DNA of 64,000 nucleotides from the sequence record OR896157.1. The stretch is one strand, 5' to 3'. A model generated the notes under the pieces. It ran no database searches. It was given only the letters and a program-made list of their open reading frames with translations, and was not told where the DNA came from. The position numbers and the translations under genes were made by a program. This DNA is from a phage. Positions 1,487 to 52,151 of this stretch are shown piece by piece. The first letter of the stretch is position 1, and each line of letters begins with the position of its first letter.

Positions 1487-4195
1487 TTAGAAATCAAACA
1501 TATTGTCTAAAGACGCTTTTTCTTCATAGTCTAATCCAGAAGCTTCTGACATACCAGCAAGTGGCTTAACGAAAGACTTTTGGAACAGAGTCGTATAGTC
1601 CAACCAAGCCAGAACATCTTGACGAATTTCCTGCGGAAGTTCAGTACCTGATGGCCAGGCGATACACTTGTCACCGAATGGGTTACCCTGACGAAGTGGA
1701 AGAACCATCACCTTGTTACCCTCGAGAATCGGAGTGACAGAGAATCCTGCCGTTGCACGATTATAAGTCAGTGCACCACGAACGTGATATGGACATTTCA
1801 GACCAGGGAAACCATTATCGTCATATTTACCAATGTCATTACAAGTTTTAACTTCTGCAATAACTTTGTAGTCCAGCTGACGATATTCCTTCTCAAACTG
1901 TTTGTAGTATTCTTGCAGTGATTCTTCGCCTTCTTGAACCATACGACGAATACTTTCTTCCAGTGCTTTCTGAACTGCTTTTGGCGTAGAAGACTGCTGA
2001 GTTTCCATGCCCATAATCTTCAAGTGTGGTTCAGCATAACGCTTATCTTCCATGTCGTAAACGTTCAGTGCATAACGTTTCTTAGCTTTCCAGAATCCAC
2101 CACAACCTTTTGAACCAAGCGGCGGACATGAAATAGCTTCTCGGTCCATGTGCATAAGATGTTCACGGTTATTGAAATATTCGCACAGTTCACGATAAGC
2201 AGTATCAATCATCGGTTCCATTTTCTTCTTACCGAATTGGTTCATAAATTCAACCACTTCGTCAGTCGTTTTGAAACGTTCAAGACCTACTTTTTCAATA
2301 ACTTTGTCAACAGAAACGTAGATTGAGTCAGTATCACCTGCTGCGATGAAATCAAATCCTTCAGTTCCACACACTTTATTCAGATACTCGTTAACTTTAC
2401 GAGCAATCCAACGAATACCTACTTGACCAAACAGTGTAATAGCAGATGCGTTACGAAGGTCATAATAACGGAAGTAGATGTTACCCAAAGCACCATAAAG
2501 ACTGTTGATAAGAATCTTACGGTTCAACTGGTTTGTGTTTGCTAGAATAGCAGCAGCTTCACATCGAGCCAGCATAGTTTCCAACACCAACTTCGTGTAC
2601 TTATTCAGTGATGCTTTCTGTTCGTCAGTGTACTGAGTGTAACGAGTTTCATCTGGAGTATCAATGTCACCGAATACGCCAGCTGCCAGAACTTTCTTAA
2701 TTTCTTCTGCGTTACGTTCTTCTGCGAACATCTTTTTCTTCCAATCTTTACGCTGGAAGAATACCTTAGCGATTTCTACTGGGATGACACCTTCAATATC
2801 TTTACGATACATCCAACCGTTCGGTGAGCAAGAATACTCGTCACTTGGACGTGGTGCAGTCTTATTGATATAAGCTTCAATATCATAAAGTTTGAATTGA
2901 CCAACAATAGTTTCCGGAGAAATATTCACCTGACGAATGATACTCGGATACAGAGATGTTAAGTCAAAACTCATGATGTACTTACGAGCGCATGCTAATG
3001 GTTCAAATACATATGCACCTGGATAACTTTGCTTGATATGACGCTTACCTTGAGGAACAACTTTGTTCTGTTCTTTCAGGGAGTTAAAGATAATTGCGTC
3101 CCAAGTTTTAATCGGAGACATTACACCACCAAACGGCATCTTGGCATAATAAGACATACTAAGTGCCAGGTCAATGAATCCACGAACTCGGTCAATACCA
3201 CCTACGGACTCAACGTCCATAATGTTATAGCTAATGTATCGTTGGTGATTTGTTTCACGAAGTTTGTTAATTGGACCATCGTATGGCAACTTACCACGTT
3301 TAGTCTCGTATAGAGCGATGTAGTCCAAGTTATAAGTTGGTTGGTTCGTGAATGAATACTTCTTGTACAAATCCATGTAATCCAGAATTGTTACACCATC
3401 AATACTGAATACTTCTTTTTCACCGTACATGTTCTGAATGAGTTTTGAATTCACTCGATTGATTGGAGAGAATCGTTTCATTGAACGTTCACCCAATACA
3501 TGCTTAACACGGTTCATGATGTATGGAATATCGAAGCCTTCAATGTTCCAACCCGTGAAGATTGCTGGACGCTTTTGTTCCCAGAGATTGATATATTCCA
3601 GAAGAAGTTCTTTCTCTGAATGGAAAGGCATGTACACTACACGGTCGAGAATATGTTGTGGAACTTCGTCTCCACCTTCTTTATCACTTCGTGCAGCTAA
3701 CTTCGCGTCCCATTCTGAAACTGAGCCATACAGAGAATCTAACAAATCGAAAACGTAGAACTTATCATCGATTGAATCATAATGAGTGATTGCATCGATT
3801 TCGTACATAGCTTTCATTGGGTCTGGGAATTTATCACCTGTAACTTCGATGTCACAGTTCGCAACACGAATGAATTTCTTGTCATAAACAATTTCAGAAC
3901 CATAAGTGTCGGAGATATAAGCGAGTTTGAAGTCATCCATACCCATGGCTTCAAGACCGATATCTTCCATACGACGAATCCAATCACGAGCATCTTTCAT
4001 GGTTGGGAATGTGTTTTTGATACATGGTTTCCCATAGATATCAAAGAACTTTGTCTTCACACCTTGTTGAGCATGAGAAAACATAGTTGGAGAATATTCA
4101 ACTCGTCGTTGACGTTCTACACCATTGGAGTCAATATAACGTTCAATGATGTCATTACCTGCGGTTTCAATAGAGATATAAAATTCTTGTGCCAT
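1487..4195 (-). CDS. 43: DNA polymerase (T4 gp43, family B)
   Basis: 902-aa ORF collinear with remembered T4 gp43; exonuclease and polymerase motifs (DIE, YGDTDS, KILINSLYGALG). Confidence 0.97.
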   Translation of the reverse strand: MAQEFYISIETAGNDIIERYIDSNGVERQRRVEYSPTMFSHAQQGVKTKFFDIYGKPCIKNTFPTMKDARDWIRRMEDIGLEAMGMDDFKLAYISDTYGSEIVYDKKFIRVANCDIEVTGDKFPDPMKAMYEIDAITHYDSIDDKFYVFDLLDSLYGSVSEWDAKLAARSDKEGGDEVPQHILDRVVYMPFHSEKELLLEYINLWEQKRPAIFTGWNIEGFDIPYIMNRVKHVLGERSMKRFSPINRVNSKLIQNMYGEKEVFSIDGVTILDYMDLYKKYSFTNQPTYNLDYIALYETKRGKLPYDGPINKLRETNHQRYISYNIMDVESVGGIDRVRGFIDLALSMSYYAKMPFGGVMSPIKTWDAIIFNSLKEQNKVVPQGKRHIKQSYPGAYVFEPLACARKYIMSFDLTSLYPSIIRQVNISPETIVGQFKLYDIEAYINKTAPRPSDEYSCSPNGWMYRKDIEGVIPVEIAKVFFQRKDWKKKMFAEERNAEEIKKVLAAGVFGDIDTPDETRYTQYTDEQKASLNKYTKLVLETMLARCEAAAILANTNQLNRKILINSLYGALGNIYFRYYDLRNASAITLFGQVGIRWIARKVNEYLNKVCGTEGFDFIAAGDTDSIYVSVDKVIEKVGLERFKTTDEVVEFMNQFGKKKMEPMIDTAYRELCEYFNNREHLMHMDREAISCPPLGSKGCGGFWKAKKRYALNVYDMEDKRYAEPHLKIMGMETQQSSTPKAVQKALEESIRRMVQEGEESLQEYYKQFEKEYRQLDYKVIAEVKTCNDIGKYDDNGFPGLKCPYHVRGALTYNRATAGFSVTPILEGNKVMVLPLRQGNPFGDKCIAWPSGTELPQEIRQDVLAWLDYTTLFQKSFVKPLAGMSEASGLDYEEKASLDNMFDF

Positions 4196-46803: not shown

Positions 46804-46879
46804 TGGTGCCGGTTAACGGATTCGAACCGCTGACCCTCTCATTACAAATGAGCTGCTCTACCAACTGAGCTAAACCGGC
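46804..46879 (-). tRNA. tRNA-Thr (anticodon UGU)
   Basis: manual fold: acceptor GCCGGUU/AACCGGC, D GCUC..GAGC, anticodon loop UUUGUAA, T-loop GGUUCGAAUCC, CCA encoded. Confidence 0.8.
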
Positions 46880-46880
46880 T

Positions 46881-46965
46881 TGGTGCATCAAGAGGGATTC
46901 GAACCCTCAATCCTTTCGGCGGGGCATTTTAAGTGCCCTGTGTATACCAGTTCCACCATTGATGC
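46881..46965 (-). tRNA. tRNA-Leu (anticodon UAA), class II
   Basis: acceptor GCAUCAA/UUGAUGC, anticodon loop CUUAAAA, 13-nt variable arm, T-arm GAGGG-UUCGAAU-CCCUC. Confidence 0.8.
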
Positions 46966-46971
46966 GAAATT

Positions 46972-47056
46972 TGGAGCTAGGAGTGAGATTCGAACTCACG
47001 AAGGGATACCCGGCGGATTTGCAATCCGCTGCCTTTGGCCACTCAGCAACCCTAGC
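46972..47056 (-). tRNA. tRNA with class-II architecture and anticodon GCA (Cys-type)
   Basis: acceptor GCUAGGG/UCCUAGC, anticodon stem-loop GCGGA-UUGCAAA-UCCGC, 13-nt variable arm CGGGUAUCCCUUC; assignment tentative. Confidence 0.5.
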
Positions 47057-47060
47057 AAAT

Positions 47061-47138
47061 TGGTCGAGGTAGAGGGATTCGAACCCGTCGACCTGTGGAT
47101 TAGAAGTCCACTGCTCTATCCAGCTGAGCTATACCCCG
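47061..47138 (-). tRNA. tRNA-Arg (anticodon UCU)
   Basis: acceptor CGGGGUA/UACCUCG, D GCUC..GAGC, anticodon loop CUUCUAA; T-stem has only 3 clean pairs. Confidence 0.7.
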
Positions 47139-47142
47139 AGTG

Positions 47143-47268
47143 TGTTCAGACAGGACTCGAACCTGTAAGCATGTTCTTGCGGCGTTTTACCACCGTCGTC
47201 AGCATATGATTCAATATGCGAACTCAAAAGGTGTTGGACCCCTTGTCTACCAATTCCAGCACTGAACA
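47143..47268 (-). ncRNA. 126-nt tRNA-like stable RNA candidate (possibly rnaC/rnaD-type)
   Basis: 7-bp acceptor-like helix UGUUCAG/CUGAACA and canonical T-arm ACAGG-UUCGAGU-CCUGU enclose ~93 nt with D-loop-like AAUUGGUAGA but no canonical anticodon arm. Confidence 0.4.
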
Positions 47269-49971: not shown

Positions 49972-49978
49972 AATTTGT

Positions 49979-50070
49979 ACGGAACGCCTGGATTCGAACC
50001 AGGTTAAATTGCGATTGACGTCACAATTTATCTTATGAAGGCCATGCCTCTACCATATCCGAACGTTCCG
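49979..50070 (-). tRNA. atypical tRNA-like gene / possible pseudo-tRNA with CAU-type anticodon loop (UUCAUAA) and a 9-bp hairpin insertion
   Basis: perfect 7-bp acceptor CGGAACG/CGUUCCG and T-arm CCUGG-UUCGAAU-CCAGG, but weak D and anticodon stems and a 26-nt perfect hairpin before the T-arm. Confidence 0.35.
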
Positions 50071-50121
50071 TCAAAAACGCTACTCGGCTTACGGCTTAGG
50101 CAATTCCTCGAACCGATAATT

Positions 50122-51699: not shown

Positions 51700-51785
51700 T
51701 GGCGGGCCGTGCAGGTATCGAACCTGCCTAGTCATTTCTGACACGGATTAACAGTCCGTCGCTTACCCTCTCAGCCAACGACCCA
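51700..51785 (-). tRNA. tRNA with anticodon GUU (Asn-type) and a 15-nt variable arm
   Basis: acceptor GGGUCGU/ACGGCCC, anticodon stem-loop ACGGA-CUGUUAA-UCCGU, extra hairpin GUCA-GAAA-UGAC, T-arm GCAGG-UUCGAUA-CCUGC. Confidence 0.55.
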
Positions 51786-52063: not shown

Positions 52064-52151
52064 TGGTGGGGAGTGATGGAGTCGAACCACCCGAGTCGCA
52101 ATGACAACAGATTTACAGTCTGCACCGCTACCTCTACGGAATTAACTCCCC
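52064..52151 (-). tRNA. tRNA-Tyr (anticodon GUA), class II
   Basis: acceptor GGGGAGU/ACUCCCC, anticodon stem-loop GCAGA-CUGUAAA-UCUGU, long variable arm; 5 nt between acceptor and D-stem. Confidence 0.75.

Follow-up and report, generated by a model that had tools for sequence, protein, structure and literature searches.

Long variable arms in bacteria are, according to textbooks and identity reviews, limited to the tRNAs for leucine, serine, tyrosine and selenocysteine. A long-armed cysteine tRNA has been described in the selC* tRNA-Cys and the allo-tRNAs, which carry U73 and a GCA (or UCA) anticodon, and for the selC* type experiments have demonstrated charging by CysRS (Mukai et al., 2017, PMC5389517). 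The selC* type of anaerobic bacteria resembles tRNA-Sec, with an 8/4 (or 9/3) acceptor/T branch and longer anticodon and D stems, and often combines a UCA anticodon with a dedicated CysRS* (PMC5389517). The boundary between class I and class II is also crossed, with amino-acid identity kept, by the type I tRNA-Leu of Streptomyces coelicolor, although there it is a class II isotype that lost its arm, and both the amino acid and the synthetase differ from those considered here (PMC6614811).

The gene described here belongs to a Karamvirus-type T4-like Enterobacter phage (Straboviridae, Tevenvirinae) and lies in the window, by which we mean the whole stretch of 64,000 nt of sequence record OR896157.1 that was analysed. 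Like the selC* type, it combines a long variable arm with U73 and GCA; unlike it, the fold is a plain 7/5 cloverleaf in which the anticodon stem has 5 bp and the D stem 3 bp, the D arm is Tyr-like and the variable hairpin is short. The gene itself is already known (GenBank tRNA-Cys), and the Karamvirus papers list it with nothing more on the tRNA-Cys. No description of a 7/5 long-armed tRNA-Cys was found in the open-access literature and preprints (bioRxiv); the 7/5 class-II-shaped tRNA-Cys is apparently undescribed, and the phage gene appears to be part of a wider, overlooked architectural class.

Structure, conservation and genomic context of the phage tRNA-Cys

On the minus strand, ARAGORN returns an 85-nt tRNA-Cys(gca) with exact coordinates 46972-47056, and Rfam matches it over the full RF00005 model (1-71) with 48 bits (E=3.7e-7; gathering threshold 29). 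The gene reads GCUAGGG UU GCU GAGUGGCCAAA GGC A GCGGA UUGCAAA UCCGC CGGGUAUCCCUUC GUGAG UUCGAAU CUCAC UCCUAGC U CCA (Table 1), where U8 and U9 join the acceptor stem to the D stem and A26 sits between the D stem and the anticodon stem. Its D arm is of the type found in class II tRNAs and in many tRNA-Cys genes. The variable arm consists of a 3-bp stem and a UAU triloop, which is class II by the criterion of a variable region of more than 10 nt with a stem-loop. Single-sequence folding energy is modestly better than that of shuffles (z = -1.8). The initial annotation had folded the acceptor, the T-arm and a 5-bp anticodon stem with loop UUGCAAA by hand, and this fold is correct in every element, the anticodon GCA being the same in the ARAGORN call. 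Its suspicion that the fold might be wrong is refuted by ARAGORN, Rfam, covariation and RNAalifold, and the 13-nt variable arm it pointed out is a real hairpin (RNAalifold, covariation in the phage EcS1) that breaks the Leu/Ser/Tyr rule.

Table 1. Coordinates of the tRNA-Cys gene, its parts and associated tRNA features in the window.
Feature	Position	Strand	Support or remark
Four-gene block: Arg(UCU) 47061-47138, Cys 46972-47056, Leu(UAA) 46881-46965, Thr(UGU) 46804-46879	46804..47138	-	
Complete tRNA-Cys(GCA) gene, 85 nt, class-II-shaped, CCA encoded	46972..47056	-	ARAGORN; Rfam RF00005; annotation in PG7 and >20 related GenBank records
Acceptor stem, 5' strand GCUAGGG (G1-C72, C2-G71, ... 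G7.U66), 7 bp	47050..47056	-	
D arm: 3-bp stem GCU/GGC, 11-nt loop GAGUGGCCAAA (G13.A22, G15, G18G19)	47031..47047	-	
Anticodon arm GCGGA-UUGCAAA-UCCGC, 5-bp stem	47013..47029	-	16/17 identical to E. coli tRNA-Cys arm
Anticodon GCA, predicted to read UGC and UGU	47020..47022	-	ARAGORN: anticodon at position 35; invariant in all lineage variants
Variable region C-GGG-UAU-CCC-UUC, 13 nt; stem 47009-47011 with 47003-47005; last base C48	47000..47012	-	
T arm GUGAG-UUCGAAU-CUCAC, 5-bp stem	46983..46999	-	Invariant in lineage
Acceptor stem, 3' strand UCCUAGC	46976..46982	-	
Discriminator U73, major cysteine identity determinant (PMC9976931)	46975	-	Invariant in lineage
Genome-encoded 3' CCA	46972..46974	-	
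tRNA-Asn(GUU), 85 nt, G73, 15-nt variable region, hairpin GUCA-GAAA-UGAC	51700..51784	-	ARAGORN; Rfam 49 bits; MFE fold shows variable-arm helix

Compared with the class I tRNA-Cys of E. coli (74 nt; reference sequence verified in 5425 genomes), the phage tRNA has the same GCA anticodon, U73 and G1-C72, an anticodon arm identical at 16 of 17 positions and a D stem of 3 bp in which 13:22 is mismatched. It differs in its 13-nt variable region with a hairpin, where the E. coli tRNA has a loop of 4-5 nt, in G15:C48 instead of G15:G48, in G13.A22 instead of A13.A22, and in its 11-nt D loop. With the class II tRNA-Tyr of E. coli (85 nt), it shares the length overall and per element, a variable region of 13 nt containing a 3-bp stem, a nearly identical D loop and G1-C72, whereas C35 and U73 replace the U35 and A73 of tRNA-Tyr.

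About 30 Karamvirus-type isolates from several continents carry the 85-nt sequence either unchanged or with at least 97.6% identity. Phages carrying the gene come from at least seven countries, the substitutions among them are all structure-preserving, and wherever the tRNAs of relatives are annotated the ortholog is labelled tRNA-Cys. The ortholog in Escherichia phage EcS1 (Kagamiyamavirus) is 85% identical. In an alignment of nine distinct lineage variants, the pair G7.U66 is replaced by A7-U66 or G7-C66 (GU in 5, AU in 3, GC in 1) and is always intact, while EcS1 has C12-G23 for U12.G23 and is doubly compensated at two pairs of the anticodon stem and at two of the variable stem (GGG/CCC to AGC/GCU), the latter closing a 5-nt loop. 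Elsewhere in the variable arm, EnC15 has one G-C pair changed to G.U and RZH has two additional loop nucleotides. An explicit class II cloverleaf accounts for 99.5% canonical pair cells in the nine variants, compared with 40-55% in slid controls. Four pairs, two of them in the variable stem, are doubly compensated, a count reached by 1/500 shuffles and owed mainly to the divergent EcS1, since most other copies are near-identical. RNAalifold independently predicts the variable helix from the nine variants, and the anticodon, the entire anticodon loop, U73 and CCA show zero variation in the lineage. The gene, a real tRNA according to ARAGORN and Rfam, is by this pattern of sequence change conserved under structural selection. 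Its extra arm, too, is a product of selection for structure rather than a chance feature confined to a single genome.

The tRNA region has 92-98% coverage and 94-97% identity with Enterobacter phage PG7 and other Karamvirus phages. The gene belongs to the Arg-Cys-Leu-Thr block (Table 1) within a cluster of about 19-20 tRNA genes spanning ~5 kb, and is the sole GCA tRNA that ARAGORN finds there. The spacers in the block are only 1-6 nt, which implies co-transcription and processing; a promoter and terminator scan around the block gave nothing above shuffles and no consensus inside it. The block would be transcribed as one unit, and host RNase P and 3' nucleases would trim the product. The tRNA-Cys already carries CCA and folds as a normal 7/5 cloverleaf, with a small hairpin of 3 bp grown out of its variable loop.

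Other elements of the cluster are less regular. A tRNA-Tyr(GUA) at 52067-52151 (minus strand) has A73, a long arm and an aberrant D arm; it scores 39 bits in Rfam and is missed by ARAGORN, and its counterpart in Cronobacter phage Pet-CM3-4 is annotated as 'tRNA-Pseudo-GTA'. At 49977-50071 (minus strand), ARAGORN calls a 95-nt 'tRNA-Met(CAU)' with an 8-bp acceptor stem, mismatches in the D and anticodon stems and an extra arm of 7 bp, which is a tRNA-Met in the PG7 annotation. It has no Rfam tRNA match even in a permissive scan at E<=1, and is probably a degenerate or non-canonical tRNA-like element. Just upstream of tRNA-Arg, a T-arm-like motif, CAGGUUCGAGUCCUG, occurs at 47140-47200 (minus strand); a permissive Rfam scan (E<=1) recognised no tRNA around it, and the motif may be a tRNA remnant.

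Long-armed tRNAs in other viruses and in Phycisphaerae

A scan of IMG/VR for a Cys anticodon arm separated from the T loop by a long spacer, with confirmation by ARAGORN, yielded at least 45 distinct viral GCA tRNAs whose variable regions are 10-20 nt long. U73 is present in every one of them, as are an acceptor stem of 7 bp and a T stem of 5 bp, and CCA is encoded in most. Among IMG/VR phage tRNA-Cys matches sampled irrespective of arm length, the long arm is present in 6/120 (5%). The same type of pattern applied to one genome per prokaryotic species gave at least 94 distinct genomic long-armed tRNA-Cys genes, mainly from the Planctomycetota class Phycisphaerae and including complete chromosomes; all have U73 and nearly all G1-C72, with G15 in 88/94 and C48 in 92/94 among the matches listed. 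In Phycisphaerae they are stand-alone genes flanked by SecA, glutamine synthetase or PNPase. Over the whole collection of at least 144 distinct GCA sequences (139 long-armed, 5 short), U73 is universal, and G1-C72 occurs in 134/139 of the long-armed ones. The long variable regions exceed their shuffles in self-complementarity in 1000/1000 trials, and in groups with fixed columns the core positions of the variable stem are 96-100% paired (GC, CG, AU, UA), compared with 0-60% in slid controls; the loops of this wider class are mostly GNRA. The 7/5 long-armed tRNA-Cys is therefore a chromosomal form in Phycisphaerae that recurs in phages.

The Karamvirus-type gene resembles the long-armed tRNA-Cys genes of Phycisphaerae and uncultivated phages in its 7/5 fold, the D arm NGCCNGAGUGGNCNAANGG, GGAUUGCAAAUCC, U73, G15:C48 and a variable region within their range of 10-20 nt with a 2-5 bp stem. 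It differs in having a UAU triloop where theirs are mostly GNRA tetraloops and, from the Phycisphaerae genes, in having an encoded CCA and C2-G71, whereas those genes lack encoded CCA and have G2-C71. Common descent and convergence both stand as readings of this likeness. Two other viral long-armed Cys families had no match among cultured phages (BLAST), so that Karamvirus and EcS1 are the tractable examples: a cysteine tRNA with a long arm is available in cultured, easily handled phages of Enterobacter and E. coli, respectively. These provide a natural setting for testing how far an extra arm is tolerated by CysRS, EF-Tu, RNase P and modification enzymes, and the long-armed tRNA-Cys is a possible scaffold for engineered or orthogonal tRNAs. 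The class also calls for caution in annotation pipelines and isotype models that use arm length as a diagnostic.

Several individual loci are of interest in their own right. Some Phycisphaerae loci on MAG contigs (L246 and L222) carry a class I tRNA-Cys with a 5-nt variable region and the same body, in L246 beside a long-armed copy; short- and long-armed forms thus coexist in the clade. Locus L144 has two long-armed copies 200 nt apart. Four loci on non-Planctomycete MAG contigs, L142 (a Synechococcus MAG), L177 (a Marivivens MAG), L194 and L224, have long-armed tRNA-Cys genes with encoded CCA that resemble the viral families, and may represent phage or prophage DNA binned with the host.

Arm expansion also affects other isotypes. 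On viral contigs with a long-armed tRNA-Cys, 15/317 other class I tRNAs (Asn, Lys, Thr, Trp, Gly) have a variable region of at least 10 nt, compared with 0/600 on contigs with a short-armed tRNA-Cys (Fisher p about 1e-7, indicative as the contigs are not phylogenetically independent). Counted by locus, long-armed other isotypes occur in 11/48 and 0/105, respectively, a comparison that is likewise indicative only, the contigs being non-independent. The window is one such genome, with co-expanded arms in Cys and Asn(GUU) (Table 1), while the Asn tRNA of EcS1 is ordinary (77 nt). For the long-armed Asn tRNA, with G73 as well as a long arm, mischarging by SerRS is more conceivable than for the Cys tRNA. 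That arms of further class I isotypes are expanded as well suggests a cause at the level of the phage lineage, and provides a handle on the simultaneous expansion of variable arms of several tRNAs in some phage lineages.

A further long-armed isotype outside Leu/Ser/Tyr is tRNA-Ile(UAU) of IMG/VR phages (ARAGORN 'Ile tat', 90-95 nt; e.g., L045, L066, L080, L290, L305, and L346), with a variable region of 21-25 nt in 20/21 cases. Most share the hairpin GCGCCAGAUUAGCG(C), which is conserved among several D-arm families unrelated to one another, and they have A73 and encoded CCA.

Amino-acid identity of the phage tRNA

The major determinants for CysRS are U73 and the GCA anticodon, and U73 alone gives minihelices Cys identity (Giegé and Eriani, 2023, PMC9976931). 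The phage tRNA carries both (U73 and G34-C35-A36) as well as G1-C72, and with GCA and U73 it stands outside the usual isotypes of a class II arm (Leu, Ser, Tyr, or Sec). A73 is crucial for LeuRS (PMC9976931), and U73 takes its place here. For E. coli CysRS, the atypical G15:G48 Levitt pair, conserved in only a few bacteria, is also a strong determinant (PMC9976931). The phage tRNA lacks this pair and has G15:C48 and G13.A22, because of which charging by an enterobacterial CysRS could be inefficient. A BLAST search with class I phage tRNA-Cys, directed at the frequency of G15:C48 in enterobacterial phages, returned the 5' half of the Karamvirus tRNA-Cys as its sole match. From these sequence elements, we infer with good confidence that the molecule is a cysteine tRNA, presumably charged as such, and it most likely serves as a functional elongator tRNA-Cys of this Karamvirus-type phage with ordinary decoding. 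Host CysRS would charge it with cysteine through U73 and the GCA anticodon and, as a class I synthetase, should approach from the side opposite the variable arm; the charged tRNA would then decode UGC and UGU as cysteine. Cys codons in the window number 13 per 1000, with UGU and UGC both used, which is unremarkable. If decoding is ordinary, as expected, the biological impact on the phage is modest.

The initial annotation had considered an unusual identity or decoding, such as a Ser-chargeable tRNA reading UGC/UGU. Under such missense decoding, an anticodon-blind SerRS would read the long arm and UGC/UGU would partly be translated as serine. Recognition by SerRS depends chiefly on tertiary shape and the variable arm, the phage tRNA has both a long arm and G1-C72, and allo-tRNAs that combine a long variable arm with G73 or U73 are proposed Ser acceptors (PMC5389517), which makes low-level serylation conceivable. 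However, among the serine identity elements, G1-C72 and G2-C71 are conserved, the latter absolutely in bacterial tRNA-Ser, G73 contributes, and C2-G71 is an antideterminant against E. coli SerRS (PMC9976931); the phage tRNA has C2-G71 and U instead of G as the discriminator, and its variable stem is 3 bp, whereas the tRNA-Ser(UGA) of the same phage has one of 7 bp. In all of the at least 144 distinct sequences GCA goes strictly with U73, a pattern that fits CysRS and not an anticodon-blind enzyme; the long-armed form is the housekeeping chromosomal tRNA-Cys in Phycisphaerae, and Cys codon usage in the window is normal. We regard serine acceptance as very improbable, and the suggestion of unusual decoding finds no support. 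It is extremely improbable that the gene is a remoulded tRNA-Tyr (U35 to C, A73 to U) that keeps Tyr or dual charging, despite a resemblance in which all element lengths, including the 13-nt variable region, equal those of E. coli tRNA-Tyr, the identity is 61/86 to E. coli tRNA-Tyr versus 50/86 to E. coli tRNA-Cys (references verified), the D loop GAGUGGCCAAA is one position off the Tyr loop GAGCGGCCAAA, and the phage's own tRNA-Tyr is degenerate. Both determinants critical for TyrRS, A73 and U35 (PMC9976931), are replaced by U73 and C35, many phage tRNA-Cys genes of class I have this D arm too, and the tRNA is very unlike the phage's own tRNA-Tyr. Over the 37 positions outside the anticodon arm and variable region, a comparison free of anticodon-arm bias that gave no clear winner, it averages 25-27 to Cys and 21 to phage Tyr. 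Tyr remoulding also leaves the Asn, Lys, Thr, Trp and Gly arm expansions in the same genomes unexplained.

A role outside translation, either as a decaying pseudogene or as a tRNA-like decoy or sponge that would engage, for instance, a modification enzyme or a tRNA-targeting nuclease of the host, is in our view unlikely. Phage tRNA clusters do contain degenerate members, represented here by the 95-nt 'Met' and the weak Tyr, the G15:C48 core is suboptimal for E. coli CysRS, and the variable-arm expansion in several isotypes of one genome could have a selector other than the ribosome. Against this, pairing in the acceptor, T and anticodon stems is perfect, the lineage shows no variation in the anticodon loop, U73 or CCA, phages of different countries differ only by substitutions that preserve the structure, and the identical architecture serves as the cellular tRNA-Cys in Phycisphaerae.

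Origin and possible benefit of the arm

We lean towards expansion of a tRNA-Cys variable loop in situ as the simplest origin of the arm, in preference to a converted tRNA-Tyr, because several isotypes of one genome show arm growth. An origin by remoulding of tRNA-Tyr was at first attractive for the 61/86 identity and the identical element lengths, and lost ground once this D arm also turned up in class I tRNA-Cys genes of phages. As for what the arm does, a possible benefit is resistance to a tRNA-targeting defence nuclease or to a processing or modification enzyme, or a means for such an enzyme to tell phage from host tRNAs; the alternative to a selected arm is a neutral ornament only. The most comprehensive proposal, that the 7/5 class-II-shaped tRNA-Cys is an unrecognised natural architecture, housekeeping in Phycisphaerae and recurrent in phages, with the phage arm actively selected along with matching Asn, Lys, Thr, Trp and Gly expansions, is as a whole possible but doubtful.

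A search for the acceptor stem and T arm of the phage tRNA-Cys found no class I sibling with these modules. The large viral contig of locus L374 (IMGVR_UViG_3300013126_000010) encodes at 3937-4017 (minus strand) an 81-nt tRNA-Thr(UGU) with U73 and an 11-nt unstructured variable region, whose acceptor stem and T arm are exactly those of the phage tRNA-Cys (23-nt exact run) while its D stem and anticodon arm differ. This single case is suggestive of module exchange among phage tRNA genes.
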